From contig DAOVUW010000001.1 in NCBI GenBank assembly GCA_030632385.1, positions 1-34,029 on the forward strand: DNA of 34,029 bases. Direction: 5' to 3'. A program made the position numbers and the translations under genes. Positions 7,685 to 17,428 of this stretch are shown here, one piece after another; positions within the stretch are counted from its first letter, which is position 1, and every line of letters starts with the position of its first letter. Source of the stretch: Candidatus Nanohalarchaeota archaeon (GTDB lineage: Archaea > EX4484-52). The notes beneath the pieces are model-generated. The model was not told the origin of the DNA. It did no database searches and worked only from the letters and a program-made list of their open reading frames with translations.

Positions 7685-7770
7685 AAAAATTGAAATTATT
7701 CTTCCCTTATTTATTTAAAAGTTCTGTTGAATTATTTATTAATTACATTAATTACAAAAGAGGGAGTTGT

Positions 7771-10770
7771 ATGTTTGGATATATAGGAAAAATATTAATA
7801 GTTGATTTAACTACAGGAAAAACAGATGAAAAAACACTAGATCCAGAATTATTGTCTAAATATATTGGTGGAAGAGGATTGACTACAAAAATTCTTTATG
7901 ATGAATTAAAGCCGGGAATTGATGCGCTTTCAGAGGAAAATATTATGGTCTTTATGACCGGTCCATTAACAGGACTTGCATGCTCTTCAGGAAGATTTTG
8001 CATTGCATCTAAATCTCCGCTTACCGGGACTATATTTGATTCACAGGTCGGCGGTACATTTGGCGTTGAACTCAAAAAAGGAGGATATGACGGAATAATT
8101 ATACTCGGAAAATCAAAAAAGCCGGTTTATCTTATGATTAACGATGGAAAAGCAGAATTAAAAGATGCTAAAAATCTATGGGGTAAAAACACAGGCGAAT
8201 GCACAGATTTAATATTAAATAAAGAAGGGAAAAATGTGAAAGTTTCATGCATTGGTCCTGCCGGAGAACATCTTGTAAGATATGCATGCATCATTACAGA
8301 GAAAGAAAGAGCTGCCGGACGAGGTGGTCTGGGAGCTGTAATGGGTTCAAAGAACTTAAAAGCTGTTGCTGTTAGGGGAACAGGAAAAATCATTCCTGCA
8401 AATGAATACGCATTTAGAAACGAAGATAGAAAATTTATGAAACTCTTAAGAGGTCATCCTGTTACAGGCGATGGATTTGGGCGTTTTGGAACATTAATAT
8501 TAATGAACCCAGTTAATAAGCAGGGTGTTTTGCCAGTAAATAACTTTCAGGAAGGTTATTCAGAATCAATAGAAAAACTGACCGGAGAAACAATGCAAAA
8601 ATATCTTGTAAAAAAAAGATCATGCGCTTTATGTCCCATTGCCTGCGGCAGAATTATTAAAGTAGGAAACACAACTACAAGCGGACCTGAATTCGAGAGT
8701 ACATGGGCATTGGGCGTCTTGACAGGATATTCTTCTGCTGAAAGTGTAGCACACTTAAATGAACTTTGCAATCAGTATGGATTGGATACTATTTCTACAG
8801 GAAACACAATGGGTTTTATCAAAGAATGTTTATCTAAATGTCTCATTGATGAAAAAATATCCTTTGATAATCACGAGGCACTTGCTAATTTAATAACTAA
8901 AATTGCATTTAGAGAAGGCATTGGTGATTTAATCGCAGAAGGAACAAAAAGAATTTCTTCAAAAATCGGGGGAAAAGAATTTGCAATCAATGTTAAAGGA
9001 TTGGAATTGCCTGCATATGATCCAAGGGGTACTAAAGGACAGGGACTTGCATATATTACAAGCAATAGAGGTGGTTGTCACACAAGAGCTTACATGATAC
9101 CACAAGAAGTACTTTCAATGCCAAGTTACTTGGATAATTTAGAAACGGACGGAAAGGCTAAAAAAGTAATAGATATTGAAAATATTTTTACTGTACTGGA
9201 TTCATTGATGAGATGCAAATTTACCTCACTGGCTGTCTTTAAAACATTCGATTATGAAGTTGAAGTCTACAGCAGACTACTGACAACAGCTACAGGATTT
9301 TATTTCTCACCGGAAGATTTCAAACAAGCAGGAGAAAGAATATGGAATCTAGAGAGATGCTTTAACAATAGAGAAGGATTTACAAAAGCAGATGATTCCT
9401 TGCCTAAAAGATTCTCCAAACCCATGATTGGAGGACCAGCAGACGGAGAAACAATTAACACAGAAAAAATGCTTGAAGATTATTATGATTTAAGAGGCTG
9501 GGATAGTGAAGGAATGCCGAGCGAAAGAAAATTAAAGGAATTGAGTTTGGATAAAATTAAAGTTCGGGAAATATGGCCTAAAAAAATAATCTCCTTAAAT
9601 TATGAATCTATTGATGAGGCTATTGCTACTGCAAAAAAAAAGGCAGGAATCGAAAACTGGATTGAAGCATCTTCGCCCTTGATCAAAAGTCAGGGCAATA
9701 ATGCAATATCTCAACTTAGATCAAATTTTCCAAACAACACGATCATTGCAGATTACAAAACAATGGATACAGGATATCTTGAAGTTACTATTGCCGCACA
9801 GGCAGGAGCCGATATCATAACAATATCAAGTCATGCGAGCAATAATACTATTGTAGATGCTGTTGGCGCAGCCGGAAAATACAGTGTGAAAATAATGATA
9901 GATTTATTTAGTTCAAATATAGACCGCGCAAAAGAACTTGAGTCTCTTGGTGTTAATTACATAAGAGTATTTGATGAAGAAAAAATAGAAGCAATATCCA
10001 ATGCAGTGACTATCCCTGTTGTTTCTTTAAAGACATCAAAATATGCTAAACTAATTACAGAGTCATATTATGATGAAAAAAAGGCACCTATAAAACGAAA
10101 GAACACACCGGAAAATGATGGAATATGGCCTAAACTCCAAGTAGCTTTAGATTTAGATAATCTTCCTGAAGCATTGAAACTTGCGCACGGAGCAAAAAAA
10201 GCAGAAGCAGACTGGCTGGAAGCAGGAACTCCATTGATAAAATACGCAGGTATGGAAGCTGTAAGAAAATTAAGAATACAACACCCCAAAAGCACTATTG
10301 TTGCTGATCTAAAGACATTATGCTATGGCTCAAAAGAAGTGGCAATTGCAGCAAGAGCAGGCGCAGATATAATTGGAATCTGCGGCGCATCTGAAGACAA
10401 AATTATTTTAGATGCTATTCAAACAGCAAAAGAATATAATGTACGAATAATGGCAGATTTAATATCCATTAAAGACCCTGTAAAACGGGCTAAAGAACTT
10501 GAAGATATGGGAGCAGACTATATTGAATTTCATATCTCTGTTGATGACCAAATGAGAAGCAGTGATGCAAAAATTCCTTTTCCTTTGGTAGAGCAAGTTT
10601 CTAAAGTTCTGACCATACCTATGGGTGTTGCAGGAGGCATGAGAGCAGATACAGCTCCATTGGCAATAAAATCCGGCGCAAAAGTAGCTGTTGTTGGCGG
10701 AGCAATAACAAGAGCCGCTAATCCTGAAAAAGCAAGTCTGTTACTCTTGAAGGCAATGGGAAGAAAGTGA
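7771..10770 (+). CDS. Fusion protein: tungsten-type aldehyde:ferredoxin oxidoreductase (AOR family) + truncated HPS-like barrel + full 3-hexulose-6-phosphate synthase barrel
   Basis: AOR part: GGRGL, CALCPIAC plus distal MRCKF (4Fe-4S ligand pattern), NRGGCH, and C-terminal YYDLRGWD. HPS part: LQVALD, LEAGTP, VADLKT, EFH, GVAGG, VVGGAI. ATG 7771 is preceded by agggag; the track start 7690 is a TTG. Confidence 0.85.
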   Translation: MFGYIGKILIVDLTTGKTDEKTLDPELLSKYIGGRGLTTKILYDELKPGIDALSEENIMVFMTGPLTGLACSSGRFCIASKSPLTGTIFDSQVGGTFGVELKKGGYDGIIILGKSKKPVYLMINDGKAELKDAKNLWGKNTGECTDLILNKEGKNVKVSCIGPAGEHLVRYACIITEKERAAGRGGLGAVMGSKNLKAVAVRGTGKIIPANEYAFRNEDRKFMKLLRGHPVTGDGFGRFGTLILMNPVNKQGVLPVNNFQEGYSESIEKLTGETMQKYLVKKRSCALCPIACGRIIKVGNTTTSGPEFESTWALGVLTGYSSAESVAHLNELCNQYGLDTISTGNTMGFIKECLSKCLIDEKISFDNHEALANLITKIAFREGIGDLIAEGTKRISSKIGGKEFAINVKGLELPAYDPRGTKGQGLAYITSNRGGCHTRAYMIPQEVLSMPSYLDNLETDGKAKKVIDIENIFTVLDSLMRCKFTSLAVFKTFDYEVEVYSRLLTTATGFYFSPEDFKQAGERIWNLERCFNNREGFTKADDSLPKRFSKPMIGGPADGETINTEKMLEDYYDLRGWDSEGMPSERKLKELSLDKIKVREIWPKKIISLNYESIDEAIATAKKKAGIENWIEASSPLIKSQGNNAISQLRSNFPNNTIIADYKTMDTGYLEVTIAAQAGADIITISSHASNNTIVDAVGAAGKYSVKIMIDLFSSNIDRAKELESLGVNYIRVFDEEKIEAISNAVTIPVVSLKTSKYAKLITESYYDEKKAPIKRKNTPENDGIWPKLQVALDLDNLPEALKLAHGAKKAEADWLEAGTPLIKYAGMEAVRKLRIQHPKSTIVADLKTLCYGSKEVAIAARAGADIIGICGASEDKIILDAIQTAKEYNVRIMADLISIKDPVKRAKELEDMGADYIEFHISVDDQMRSSDAKIPFPLVEQVSKVLTIPMGVAGGMRADTAPLAIKSGAKVAVVGGAITRAANPEKASLLLLKAMGRK
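10572..10770 (+). repeat. Direct repeat copy A (last ~66 codons plus stop of the AOR-HPS gene)
   Basis: Aligned by hand to 12439-12632. About 9 mismatches in the first ~155 nt, then a 5-nt indel. Both copies end at the stop codon. Confidence 0.85.
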
Positions 10771-10800
10771 ATTTTGCGTACACTAAAAAGGATAATTAGC

Positions 10801-10836
10801 CTTGAAAATCTGAATAGTAAGATAAGGATTTTCAAG
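10801..10836 (+). terminator. Hairpin plus T-rich tract downstream of the AOR-HPS gene
   Basis: Perfect 10-bp inverted repeat cttgaaaatc / gattttcaag with a 16-nt loop, followed by attttctttgtaattttttt. Confidence 0.4.
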
Positions 10837-10920
10837 ATTTTCTTTGTAATTTTTTTAAGAAAATGAGGGATTTTAAAATTAATTTGAACTTTAGAACCTT
10901 AAAAAATAATAACTACTTTT

Positions 10921-11078
10921 CTTATTTCTCCAAATAGTATCACTCAATTAATGTCTCTCTCCGACAGCATCAAAACAACCCACCCACATCCACAATCAGT
11001 TTCATACTTTCCACAATTCACCAGCCCTACACATCCCCAATAAACGTAGATTTATAACTAAGACAAATTTAAACTATA
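10921..11078 (+). promoter_or_regulatory. G-depleted, C-rich putative leader of the helicase gene containing a 30-codon uORF (10951-11043)
   Basis: Hand count of 37 C versus 5 G in 10951-11040. The ATG…TAA uORF reads MSLSDSIKTTHPHPQSVSYFPQFTSPTHPQ and ends 35 nt before the helicase ATG. Confidence 0.3.
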
Positions 11079-12380
11079 ATGGAGAATAAAATATCATTTA
11101 AAGATTTGAATTTAATACCACCGCTCGAAAGAGCACTAACTAAACAAAAGTATACCGTTCCTACCCCCATACAATCAAAATCCATCCCTGGTCTATTACA
11201 AGGTGAAGATTTGATTGGTATCGCACAAACAGGTACTGGTAAAACAGCAGCATTCATATTGCCAATATTGCAAAGGATGAGAGAGAAATATCCCAGAAAA
11301 ATTAAGACTTTGGTAATTACCCCTACCAGAGAACTTGCTGCACAAATTGGAGAAAGTTTTTCTGCATACGGCGAGTTTCTTAAATTTAAGCACACTGTAA
11401 TTTTTGGTGGAGTTGGTCAGGGGAAACAAGTCCGGGTCTTATCCAGCGGCGTAGATATTCTTGTTGCAACCCCAGGCAGATTACTGGATTTAATGAATCA
11501 AGGAATAATTAATCTAAAGGATGTAGAATTTTTTGTATTGGATGAAGCAGACAGAATGCTGGACATGGGATTCATTAATGATGTAAAGAAAATAATCTCA
11601 AAATTACCTCTTAAAAGACAATCCCTGTTTTTCTCAGCAACAATGTCTCCTGAGATTAATAAACTTGCAAAAACTCTACTTAAAAATCCTATTCATGTTG
11701 AAGTTACACCTCAGGCAACTACAGTTGAGCGCATAAAACAATGTATCTTTTTTGTAGACCCATCTGCAAAAGAAAAATTATTATTTGAACTTCTAAAACA
11801 GGAACATCTTACAAGTGTTTTGGTTTTCACCCGAACAAAACATAAGGCAAATAAATTAGCATCATTTCTTAGTAAAAATAATATATCTGCTGATGCAATT
11901 CATGGAAATAAATCACAAAACGCAAGAACTAAGGCAATTAGCGATTTTAAAACAGGCAAAACCAAAGTATTGGTAGCAACAGACATTGCTGCGCGAGGAA
12001 TAGACATTGAGAATATTTCGCATGTTATAAATTTCGAACTTCCGAACGAACCAGAAAGCTATGTTCACAGAATTGGGAGGACTGCCCGAGCCGGGGCTGA
12101 TGGAACAGCCTATTCATTTTGTGCAGCAGAAGAAAGGAATTATCTTAGAGATATTGAAAGATTAATAAAACAAAAAATTGAAGTTAATAATCATACCTTT
12201 CATTCAGAAATTGCTCAAAACGCAGTAGGTGCAGCAGCCAAACCTGCACCAAAAAATAAAAGACAATTTTCTAGAAATGCCAAATATGGTGATGGACCTA
12301 AAAACACACAAAAAAATAAAAAACCATTTTCTAAGAATGTTAAATCAGGGAATAGACCTAAACGCAGTTTTAGAAGATGA
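11079..12380 (+). CDS. DEAD-box ATP-dependent RNA helicase (RhlE-like) with a basic repeat tail
   Basis: Q motif [35 protein letters not shown] and [10 protein letters not shown]. Lys/Arg/Asn-rich C-terminus. Confidence 0.92.
12252..12362 (+). repeat. Two 51-nt tandem units (60-nt period) encoding KNK.(Q/P)FS(R/K)N.K.G..PK in the helicase tail
   Basis: 12252-12302 and 12312-12362 align with few substitutions and are separated by aacacacaa. Confidence 0.7.
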
Positions 12381-12438
12381 TTAATAAATAATATTATTCT
12401 TGCTGTGCCATCCTAACTTCGACAAATTTGAAAGCAAT

Positions 12439-12632
12439 AATTCCTTTTCCTTTGGTAGAGCAAGTTTTTAAAGTTCTGACTATACCCACGGGTGTTGCAG
12501 GAGGCATGAGAGCAGATACCGCTCCATTGGCAATAAAATCCGGCACAAAAGTAGCTGTTGTCGGCGGAGCAATAACAAGAGCAGCCAATCCCGACAAGCC
12601 TCTTGCTCTTGAAGGCTATGGGGAGAAAGTAG
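12439..12632 (+). pseudogene. Promoterless 3'-terminal remnant of an HPS gene (direct repeat copy B)
   Basis: Encodes IPFPLVEQVFKVLTIPTGVAGGMRADTAPLAIKSGTKVAVVGGAITRAANP, nearly identical to the C-terminus of the 7771-10770 product. A 5-nt deletion then shifts the frame, and the original LLKAMGRK-stop is still visible out of frame (TAG 12630-12632). There is no upstream HPS sequence. Confidence 0.85.
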
Positions 12633-12749
12633 TTGCTTTATTTGTAATAAATCTCTTCTGCCTAAAAAATATCTTAACTATTTTAGACAAAGCATTTCAG
12701 ATAAATTTAAAAACGCAAAATTTAGTTATTTATTAGAATAATAACTAAT

Positions 12750-15148: not shown

Positions 15149-17428
15149 TTATTCCAAATATTTTATATGCAATAAATCTTTTTCTTCAAGACATAGTTTT
15201 TCATACATGCATGCAAATATTCCTTCCAAGAAACCAAGAAGAAGAATCTCTCCTTTAAATTCTGATGGGTATCTGTAATTTTTTCCGCTGCTGAACTGCT
15301 TTTCAAACCATGATATTTTTTCAGTATAACTTTCTTCTTTGTCCTGGACATAGATGCCTGTTGCTTTTTTGCTGTTTATCAATTCCTGCACCAACGTCTT
15401 TTTGCCCGAGAGGAAAAAATACGGAACAATGCCTATGTCATTCAAAACCTGCGTTGCATAATGAGTCTCTTTGATTCTGCCGGACAAAGACAAAATGACG
15501 GCGACATCTTTTTCATCTATCCTCTTTACGACTGATGAGCCTATGATCATTATCTTTGTGCCGGAAATCTGATATAGCCTTGAAGCAAATAATTTGGCTA
15601 TCGTGTGCATCCTGCCGTATGCCTGCAATACAATTTTTGAAGATTTTCTTGTCTCTAAGATGGCATCAATAAGCGTCTCTATTTTTTCATACTGGTCATG
15701 GATTATTTCTTTTTGCCTGAGAAGTTCATCAGAGATATCGAGTATGTATTTTTTCATATAAGATGGTTTTTTACCCACCATATAAGCTTCCACCAAACTG
15801 GTCAAAACTACAAGAACTGAAAATTCCGAAATAGTGCCCAATGGGGTCCTTTTGGAAATCAAATCCTTTTCTTTGCTTTTGAAATCATCCTTTGTCCTCC
15901 CTTTTATGACAAGCAATGTGTCTTTTTCATCCCATGCCTTGCCCTGCGCATTGGTGGTGATTCCGATTATTCTTGCGCCTTTTTCTCTCAAGGTGTTTAC
16001 ATATTCCATGACAGAATAAGTGTTTCCTGAAGAGGAAATCGCAAATAATATGTCTTTTTTTCTTTTTCCAAAATCAACAGCAATGTCCTCATCGCCTGCA
16101 GATATTATCCGCGTATCTGCTATCTTTCCAAGCCATGCGCCTGCATATCTTGCCACAAGCCCCGAGCGACCGGCACCGGTTAAAACAATTCTTGAATCTT
16201 TGTCTATTGAATCTAATATCTGCGCAATAATATTTTCATCTATATTCTCCGCCACTTCTTTGAGCTGAGAGGATAGAATTTCCAGCACATCTTCTATCAC
16301 AGAACCCATATCATCTGTAATTTTTTCTTTTATTTTTTTTATTGCTTCAGCAGGATTTTCTGATTTGGCAATTTCACTGCCTACAATGACTATTCCTACT
16401 CCTGCTTTAGAGATATTATATGCACTCTGCTTATTTACTCCTCCTGCAACTGCTACAGGTATCGACAATTCCTGTGATATTCTTTTTATGCTTTTCGGAG
16501 GAACTATTTTACTGTGCAATAAATCATTTTCTGATTGATAATAGCGAACAAAATCAACTCCTATTTTCTCCAGTTCTTTTGCCCGTTTTATTAATCTCTC
16601 TTCTCCAATGCACTCGCGCAGACCAATCAAATCCGCCATAACTTTTTTTTTGTATTTTTTTGCAACAGATACTGCTTTTTTTATCTCCTCGATATCTGTA
16701 ATTGCGAGTATGCATGCTATATCTGCTCCTGCTGCAAAAGCACTTGAAAATTCTTTTTCTGCATCAGTTATTGTTCTTGTATTGGCAACAATGGTATTGT
16801 GCGGATAAAGTTCTTTAAATTGACTTACAACATCCATTCCTTCTTCTTTTAATTCATACCCTCTAACCACCAGAGCATCTTGAGGAATCGTCCCAATAAT
16901 CACATTCTTTTCATCTTCTCCCTTGGCTTCTTCTCCTGTATATCTTAACATCAAATCTTTATTGATTTGACATACCATACACTTTGAATCCATATATATT
17001 TTGATATTTGCTTCTATGGCAGCGTTAATGCATTCCCTTATTGTTGTCAAAGAGCCCATCTGCGTAATAATTATAATATCTGCTCCGGCATCAATTGCTA
17101 ATTTCATTTCTTCTTTTCCTGCATTTATTGGTTTTAAACTAACAGCTATCAATTTTCCTGGATTGCTTTTTTTTAATTTCTTTACTTTTTTCATTCCTAC
17201 TGCCTTAATCAAAAGCGGTCCAACCTCAATAAAATCACTATCTTCTACAACTAATTCTTTAGCTATTTTCAACGCCTTTTTCTTATCTGTAAAATTTATT
17301 GCTGTCTGCAGAACTGTTTTTCTCTCATTGCGTATAAACTCCATGTTGTGCGCTGGTTTAGACACAACATGAGAAAATCCTGCACTATCTAAAGAAGAAT
17401 CAAATCTGCAGGATTTTTGCTTGTTCAT
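15149..17428 (-). CDS. Four-module RuMP protein: HPS-like (truncated) + HPS-like + 6-phospho-3-hexuloisomerase (SIS) + second degenerate SIS domain
   Basis: HPS-like: LQTAINF, FIEVGPLLIK, AGADIIII; second module AGADIACI, VAVAGGV, VIVGSEI. PHI: VLTGAGRSGL, FAISSSGNT, PLGTISEF. Second SIS: VLQAYGRM, LSLSGRIKET. A possible alternative start is M29 (ATG at 17344). Confidence 0.85.
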   Translation of the reverse strand: MNKQKSCRFDSSLDSAGFSHVVSKPAHNMEFIRNERKTVLQTAINFTDKKKALKIAKELVVEDSDFIEVGPLLIKAVGMKKVKKLKKSNPGKLIAVSLKPINAGKEEMKLAIDAGADIIIITQMGSLTTIRECINAAIEANIKIYMDSKCMVCQINKDLMLRYTGEEAKGEDEKNVIIGTIPQDALVVRGYELKEEGMDVVSQFKELYPHNTIVANTRTITDAEKEFSSAFAAGADIACILAITDIEEIKKAVSVAKKYKKKVMADLIGLRECIGEERLIKRAKELEKIGVDFVRYYQSENDLLHSKIVPPKSIKRISQELSIPVAVAGGVNKQSAYNISKAGVGIVIVGSEIAKSENPAEAIKKIKEKITDDMGSVIEDVLEILSSQLKEVAENIDENIIAQILDSIDKDSRIVLTGAGRSGLVARYAGAWLGKIADTRIISAGDEDIAVDFGKRKKDILFAISSSGNTYSVMEYVNTLREKGARIIGITTNAQGKAWDEKDTLLVIKGRTKDDFKSKEKDLISKRTPLGTISEFSVLVVLTSLVEAYMVGKKPSYMKKYILDISDELLRQKEIIHDQYEKIETLIDAILETRKSSKIVLQAYGRMHTIAKLFASRLYQISGTKIMIIGSSVVKRIDEKDVAVILSLSGRIKETHYATQVLNDIGIVPYFFLSGKKTLVQELINSKKATGIYVQDKEESYTEKISWFEKQFSSGKNYRYPSEFKGEILLLGFLEGIFACMYEKLCLEEKDLLHIKYLE

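Follow-up and report, generated by a model that had tools for sequence, protein, structure and literature searches.

Two unequal hexulose-6-phosphate synthase barrels behind an archaeal aldehyde:ferredoxin oxidoreductase: a probable single-chain pseudo-heterodimer with one composite active site

How could a 3-hexulose-6-phosphate synthase, or HPS, complete its active site when its catalytic barrel lacks the one aspartate that ordinary dimers of its suprafamily receive from the partner subunit, and why should that barrel be preceded in the same chain by a second, degenerate HPS barrel? Both questions are raised by a gene in 34,029 nucleotides of DNA from a Candidatus Nanohalarchaeota archaeon (assembly GCA_030632385.1, contig DAOVUW010000001.1, positions 1 to 34,029), a stretch that we refer to as the window. 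The gene encodes an aldehyde:ferredoxin oxidoreductase (AOR) followed by a trimmed HPS-like module (HPS', module 1) and by a complete HPS module (module 2). On the basis of the residue pattern across relatives and of a predicted structure, we consider it likely that the C-terminal 400 residues would form a single-chain pseudo-heterodimer of two HPS barrels that share one composite active site. The features needed for the argument are given below; residue numbering follows throughout the 1026-codon open reading frame (ORF) that begins with TTG at 7690, and not the 999-aa form that begins with ATG.

7771..10770, + strand: AOR–HPS' (module 1)–HPS (module 2) gene, 999 aa from ATG 7771
7771..9549, + strand: tungsten/molybdopterin AOR domain, aa 28-620, from Pfam, 1aor/1b25 matches and motifs
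9571..10074, + strand: module 1, aa 628-795, trimmed HPS-like barrel, from the HPS profile and AlphaFold2
9751..9774, + strand: module 1 motif D688-Y-K690-T-M-D693-T-G (ADYKTMDTG), with Asp693 (9766-9768) the proposed trans-acting Asp
10075..10122, + strand: linker between the modules, aa 796-811, poorly conserved
10123..10767, + strand: module 2, aa 812-1026, complete HPS barrel, from TIGR03128, 3ajx_A and motif alignment
10150-10152, + strand: module 2 cis-acting residue D821
10219-10221, + strand: module 2 cis-acting residue E844
10306..10332, + strand: module 2 motif D873-L-K875-T-L-C878-Y-G-S (ADLKTLCYG), with Cys878 (10321-10323) at the position of KGPDC Asp67 and OMPDC Asp317'
10456-10458, + strand: module 2 cis-acting residue D923
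10531-10533, + strand: module 2 cis-acting residue H948
10633-10638, + strand: module 2 phosphate loop A981-G982-G983
10696-10701, + strand: module 2 phosphate loop G1003-G1004

The first step concerns the state of the two barrels. Module 2 was matched by TIGR03128 (3-hexulose-6-phosphate synthase, RuMP_HxlA) over aa 814-1023 with 277-281 bits, the curated cutoff being 200, and Foldseek recovered a full (β/α)8 barrel superimposing on the HPS chain 3ajx_A (TMt 0.95, rmsd 1.5 Å over 209 columns). The register of the catalytic motifs was checked with gap-free HMMER alignments of the modules to solved HPS and KGPDC chains: D821, E844, D873, K875 and H948 align with KGPDC Asp11, Glu33, Asp62, Lys64 and His136, D873, K875 and V951 also being among the retained cis-acting residues, and Cys878 falls on KGPDC Asp67. 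This Asp67 reportedly acts in the active site of the partner subunit, like OMPDC Asp317', as is said to have been described by Wise et al. in 2002. At the positions that distinguish HPS from KGPDC (112, 139 and 169), module 2 sides with HPS: D923, V951 and A981 are the same residues as the D, V and A of the KGPDC mutant E112D/R139V/T169A (1xbx), a triad engineered for HPS activity. To judge from these comparisons, module 2 belongs with HPS in score, fold and cis-acting residues, and departs from the family only at the last Asp of D-x-K-x-x-D.

Module 1 presents the complementary picture. It matches HPS profile positions 8-136 (E=2.8e-38) and carries the complete motif ADYKTMDTG; its β1 Asp is replaced by Asn637, and the His as well as the VAGG and VGG phosphate loops are absent. 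The β2 Mg-ligand Glu is present in the window protein (E659), whereas 8 of the 15 relatives have Gly or Cys in its place. Since homology to HPS is kept while the catalytic set is incomplete, module 1 is, by its residues, a pseudoenzyme domain. The initial annotation had described the two modules in just these terms, with module 1 lacking the β1 Asp, the His and the phosphate loops around an intact D-x-K-x-x-D, and module 2 complete except for the last Asp; both descriptions hold, and the hand alignment on which they were based proved to be in register.

That the modules are copies of each other had also been proposed there from the letters IWPK, which open both (aa 628-631 and aa 812-815) and are encoded by the same 12 nt, ATATGGCCTAAA, each time. 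BLASTP aligns module 1 with module 2 at 40% identity over 167 aa (E=6e-37), which takes the duplication far beyond chance. An alternative to duplication is the fusion of two unrelated HPS lineages; both modules are nearest to the HPS domains of AOR-HPS fusions with a single module (46.7% and 53.9%), the module-to-module value being only 39.2%. An artefact of assembly or a frameshift joining two HPS genes was ruled out by at least nine AOR-fused clusters, seven metagenome-assembled genomes (MAGs) in GTDB and an independent contig.

The second step is to ask whether the split of residues between the modules is held in relatives. A search with the whole protein returned nine clusters with the three-part AOR-HPS'-HPS architecture (988-1014 aa, 52-100% identity) and approximately 60 clusters of AOR-HPS fusions with a single HPS domain (803-859 aa), the latter (P0008-P0069) widespread in MAGs of Thermoplasmata, Thermoprotei, Nezhaarchaeales, Bathyarchaeia and Asgard archaea (Thor-, Hod- and Promethearchaeota). 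A search with the tandem only added stand-alone HPS'-HPS proteins without AOR, namely P0121 and P0122 (~395 aa) and a minimal group of P0125, P0128, P0140 and P0152 (~352 aa) in which module 1 has shrunk to ~125 residues. Across 15 distinct tandems, AOR-fused and stand-alone, modules 1 and 2 are 27-50% identical. In order to read the catalytic columns, we took 71 short canonical HPS sequences as the basis of a profile and aligned every HPS segment to it. The column of the trans-acting Asp was occupied as follows:

Single-module HPS domains, 315 in total: 314 with Asp, one with Glu
Single-module AOR-HPS fusions (a subset of the 315): Asp in 60/60
Module 1 of 15 distinct tandems: Asp in 15/15, inside an invariant M-D-T-G
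Module 2 of the same tandems: C, R, R, S, S, R, A, S, K, A, S, E, E, E, E, hence Asp in 0/15

The residue that follows this column in module 2 varies as well (Y, N, C, A, G, R or H), while the cis-acting residues of module 2 are invariant in the 15 tandems: the β1 D, the β2 E-x-G-T-P, D-x-K, the β5 D, the His, D, Q and both GG pairs. Module 1 lacks the β1 Asp in all 15, and neither its His nor its phosphate loops remain. This division is as expected with a dead pocket in module 1 and a live one in module 2, the trans-acting residue being supplied only from module 1 to module 2. The stand-alone tandems (351-395 aa) show the same pattern in the absence of AOR, and the pairing of the modules is therefore independent of the oxidoreductase.

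These comparisons bear directly on the possibility that module 1 is a mere spacer or docking domain between AOR and HPS, with module 2 either working without a trans-acting Asp or pairing with another module 2. When the nine AOR-fused proteins are compared in pairs, module 2 has the highest mean identity (0.72), followed by AOR (0.64), module 1 (0.54) and the linker (0.26): module 1 thus evolves faster than module 2 and, devoid of most catalytic residues, it resembles the trimmed pseudoenzyme domains that often persist as scaffolds. A spacer would, however, leave unexplained why M-D-T-G and D-x-K stay invariant while the β1 Asp, the β2 Glu, the His and the phosphate loops decay, and why the trans-acting Asp, present in 314 of 315 HPS domains, is dropped only in proteins that possess a module 1; furthermore, the stand-alone tandems retain module 1 although they have no AOR to dock. 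We therefore regard a spacer as quite unlikely. As module 1 is far better conserved than the adjoining linker (0.54 vs 0.26), it is evidently under purifying selection and not a decaying relic. It is hardly credible, too, that the whole HPS part is a decaying, non-functional remnant attached to what is simply an AOR. Another HPS-related protein in the window (15149..17428) is indeed clearly dead, but no part of the fusion is better conserved than module 2 (0.72 vs 0.64 for AOR), which retains all of its cis-acting catalytic residues and exceeds the curated HPS cutoff.

The history of the modules was followed in a neighbour-joining tree computed from ~100 columns and given no support values, in which all module 2 sequences group together and those of module 1 make up a second clade, with the minimal group on a long branch. 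The internal branching orders of the two clades mirror each other; the separation into modules is therefore old, and the modules have diverged together. The AOR-fused tandem was found in seven GTDB species representatives at 67-72% identity, five of these MAGs being labelled Candidatus Nanohalarchaeota and two 'archaeon' or 'uncultured archaeon'. The tandem is rare: an exhaustive scan of 1.84 billion representatives at 50% identity gave approximately four representatives of this tandem family (family A) or of related tandems above ordinary HPS.

The third step is structural. AlphaFold2 was run on residues 620-1026 with the alignment of 15 sequences and returned a two-barrel model with a mean pLDDT of 92.8 and a pTM of 0.91, with all five models above 90.8. 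The two modules are thus confidently predicted to pack against each other as a rigid two-barrel unit. Module 1 is modelled with eight strands and six helices, α7 and α8 being missing and the His loop between β6 and α6 shortened. The residues of module 1 that are invariant in all 15 tandems (S662, K666, G669, D688, K690, M692-D693-T694-G695, E698, A705-G706-A707, S713, A716, T720 and D738) map without exception to the C-terminal ends of β2-β5 and the starts of the following helices, which places them on the catalytic face, on one side of the modelled barrel. We take this side to be the one that faces the partner in dimers of the OMPDC type. A function of its own for module 1, exerted through D688, K690 and D693 on another ligand, in regulation or in the handling of formaldehyde between HPS and AOR, could draw on the strict conservation of D-x-K and on the position of module 1 between the two enzymes in the AOR-fused members. 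We nevertheless judge it very improbable: the phosphate loops are gone, 8 of the 15 relatives have lost the Mg-ligand Glu, the His is missing, and the domain could be cut to ~125 residues in the minimal stand-alone tandems.

The same model is relevant to the question of whether the composite site is built within one chain or between chains. In a domain-swapped arrangement, module 1 of one polypeptide would complete module 2 of another, for example by way of an AOR homodimer. Complementary motifs are compatible with either topology and the chemistry would be the same; AORs of the P. furiosus type are homodimers (1aor contains two chains), and the 60 single-module AOR-HPS fusions must build their HPS dimer between chains. 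Against this stand the single-chain AlphaFold2 prediction, which packs the modules confidently across an ordered linker (pLDDT 80-89), and the retention of the architecture in stand-alone tandems that have no AOR. An exchange between chains thus appears unlikely to us, if worth bearing in mind.

In human OMPDC, which acts through a Lys-Asp-Lys-Asp' tetrad, Asp317' and Thr321' are supplied by the second monomer (PMC12631982). Transferred to the tandem, module 2 would bind Mg2+ and the sugar phosphate and perform the chemistry with D821, E844, D873, K875, D923, H948 and the two Gly-Gly loops, lacking only the Asp that ordinary HPS, KGPDC and OMPDC dimers obtain from the partner subunit. Module 1, a catalytically dead and trimmed barrel, would keep its partner-facing surface only, and D693 in K-T-M-D-T-G would complete module 2's Lys875/Asp873/Mg2+ site. 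The reciprocal site, composed of the module 1 pocket and Cys878 of module 2, would have been abandoned. We infer both the canonical dimer geometry and the trans-acting role of D693. The initial annotation had gone one step further and supposed that module 1 survives mainly as the donor of this Asp. The fused heterodimer is well served by the Asp split seen in all 15 tandems, whereas the restriction to Asp donation is too narrow, given that module 1 has kept an entire interface face as well as its own D-x-K.

Several observations weigh against a single-chain pseudo-heterodimer. D688 and K690, which a pure Asp donor would not obviously need, are conserved in module 1; speculatively, they may have been kept to position the β3-α3 loop beside the live site. 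Module 2 of the four minimal tandems (the P0125 group) carries Glu at the trans position, which might partly replace Asp. As all 15 tandems descend from one or two ancestral events, their counts are not independent. Finally, a pTM of 0.91 speaks for confident packing of the modules and says nothing about which packing is adopted, and the Foldseek matches to the PDB, made to single chains one barrel at a time, are not informative on module orientation.

A fourth step is to ask whether such a split has arisen elsewhere, and here the window itself supplies a second tandem:

15149..17428, - strand: probable pathway partner, 759 aa, with a pair of HPS-like pieces (both degenerate), a PHI/SIS domain at aa 385-553 and a ~200-aa C-terminal extension

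This protein is the sole PHI candidate in the window. Its N-terminal HPS piece corresponds to profile positions 2-112 and its second piece to positions 39-210, without β1 and α1; key residues are lost in both (LQTAIN, SLKPIN, NTRTIT; His replaced by Tyr and Gln by Leu). By these residues its HPS portion is dead; the window's only credible HPS is the AOR-HPS'-HPS protein. The relatives of the 759-aa protein (P0134, P0241, P0249, P0274 and P0332; family B) fall into tree clades separate from family A. In intact relatives the N-terminal piece keeps the β1 Asp, the β2 Glu and (D/E)-x-K-P-[ML]-D, and the C-terminal piece keeps D-x-K, the His and the phosphate loops, with Ser at the trans-Asp position (D-x-K-x-I-S): at the level of motifs, family B looks like an independent origin of the same Asp split. 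The AlphaFold2 model of P0134 (pLDDT 92.9, pTM 0.91) contains 5 + 7 strands, and Foldseek aligned its whole 333-residue chain with the 207-residue 3ajx_A over 332 columns (TMt 0.87). The predicted fold suggests a single barrel to which both pieces contribute and into which a four-strand partial duplicate has been inserted. In P0241 (968 aa), the family-B pair is joined by a third full barrel (D-x-K-x-x-D, His replaced by Leu), and two SIS domains follow the three modules.

The remaining question is why the tandem should be fused to an AOR. Pfam and NCBIfam place AFOR_N at aa 33-231 (2e-81) and AFOR_C at aa 248-620 (1e-130), followed by two OMPdecase/HPS stretches; both AFOR domains (PF02730 and PF01314) are full length, which places this part of the protein in the AOR family. 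As in P. furiosus AOR (1AOR) and formaldehyde oxidoreductase (FOR, 1B25), the cluster and pterin-site motifs are found in the N-terminal 600 aa: the [4Fe-4S] cysteines are all present (C312-x2-C-x3-C in CALCPIAC and the Cys of RCKF at approximately aa 509), as are the EFES motif and the His of RGGCH. The fusion differs from both in the 400-aa C-terminal HPS'-HPS addition. With respect to the start of this domain, the ORF as listed (7690..10770, + strand, 1026 codons) opens with TTG at 7690, whereas ATG 7771 is preceded at 5 nt by the Shine-Dalgarno sequence GAGGGAG, and a database twin (P0001; 999 aa, 100% identical) is encoded on a different contig (26.8 kb), where its neighbouring genes are the same. 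ATG 7771 is almost certainly the true start; owing to the Shine-Dalgarno sequence and the match to the 999-aa twin, the first 27 codons (7690-7771) are probably untranslated.

Archaea generally run HPS and PHI in reverse, with ribulose-5-phosphate being made and formaldehyde released. The Fae-HPS fusion has been interpreted as a means of capturing formaldehyde that HPS releases during ribulose-5-phosphate synthesis (PMC5241800). In the AOR fusion, HPS would likewise work in the biosynthetic direction (hexulose-6-phosphate to ribulose-5-phosphate and formaldehyde), and the AOR domain would most likely oxidise the released formaldehyde to formate with reduction of ferredoxin, in the role that Fae plays in Fae-HPS. 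We infer this direction of flux and the coupling to AOR from the domain architecture. A point against the coupling is that the AOR domain lies closer to the broad-specificity AOR 1aor (aligned end to end, 3e-153) than to FOR 1b25 (1.6e-109). Papers on Brockarchaeota and on Asgard archaea name HPS/PHI and AOR as separate formaldehyde routes and not as a fusion, and our literature search, which was incomplete in coverage and yields absence of evidence only, found no paper on an AOR-HPS fusion or a tandem HPS. Taking both families and the fusion together, we would tentatively propose, as a possibility that we hold less likely than not to be correct in all its parts, that archaea have converted the HPS homodimer into a single chain at least twice independently (families A and B), with a trimmed, dead copy serving only to complete the live site, and that family A was welded to a tungsten AOR as a formaldehyde-burning ribulose-5-phosphate machine. 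If so, this three-part machine would make ribulose-5-phosphate from hexulose-6-phosphate, burn the toxic formaldehyde to formate and reduce ferredoxin, which would render pentose synthesis irreversible and energy-yielding in genome-reduced DPANN archaea. The AOR-HPS fusion would also provide a testable answer for the fate of formaldehyde from the reverse RuMP pathway in non-methanogenic archaea.

Set against known systems, the tandem shares with the HPS/KGPDC/OMPDC suprafamily the (β/α)8 fold, the cis-acting residues and the HPS-type D/V/A triad of module 2 and, in principle, the logic of D-x-K-x-x-D with its last Asp acting across an interface. Known members of the suprafamily pair two identical barrels into a homodimer that shares two equivalent sites; the tandem, in contrast, comprises two unequal barrels per chain, with the Asp on the dead barrel only, and would have one site per pair. 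Archaeal fusions such as Fae-HPS, HPS-PHI and HPS-MenG/RraA-like also join HPS to an enzyme dealing with its substrate or product; here, however, the partner is an N-terminal tungstopterin [4Fe-4S] AOR, and the HPS'-HPS unit is without counterpart among these fusions. Pseudo-heterodimers derived from symmetric homodimers include C1/C2 of mammalian adenylyl cyclase, ABC transporters with one degenerate nucleotide site, and the 'prozyme' pairs of trypanosomatid AdoMetDC and DHS. In these, too, a homodimer with interface sites was duplicated, losses were complementary, one site remained intact and the dead paralogue became an obligatory partner; their folds and chemistries are different, and in the HPS tandem the dead partner has also been physically trimmed. 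To our knowledge, there is no report of a pseudo-heterodimer with complementary losses from the OMPDC suprafamily or from a TIM-barrel aldolase.

For the evolution of active sites shared across a dimer interface, the OMPDC suprafamily serves as a textbook example, and a natural single-chain pseudo-heterodimer within it would reveal which HPS residues act in cis and which in trans. Module 1 of the tandems would represent a minimal "half-partner" that could guide the engineering of a monomeric HPS for synthetic methylotrophy. For annotation, metabolic reconstructions should leave domains of the module 1 type and the dead family-B protein out of their tally of HPS activities.

The window has a GC content of ~31% and encodes archaeal housekeeping proteins (uS3, SUI1/aIF1, aIF5B, CCA-adding enzyme, RIO kinase and FtsZ). 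Its origin probably lies among the DPANN archaea. Synteny of the fusion with PHI or with the DEAD-box helicase gene (11079..12380) was sought in the neighbourhoods of the relatives, and none was found. A second copy of the fusion gene's 3' end lies downstream of this helicase gene: a direct repeat of ~200 nt links 10567-10768 with 12434-12630 (93% and 86% identical, with a 5-nt indel), and a relic ORF at 12428..12736 (+ strand, 102 codons) repeats the last ~55 residues of module 2. With the helicase gene lying between two copies of the HPS 3' end, the arrangement has the look of an insertion or duplication scar. It is also present on an independent contig (L005); relatives have no helicase at that position. 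The 308-nt intergenic stretch upstream of the helicase gene (10771-11078) contains a C/A-rich tract (~10940-11050) amid AT-rich DNA and may be a long 5' leader or foreign DNA. Within the helicase gene, two tandem 60-nt units (12228-12347) that are 70% identical code for the protein's basic, repeated C-terminal tail.

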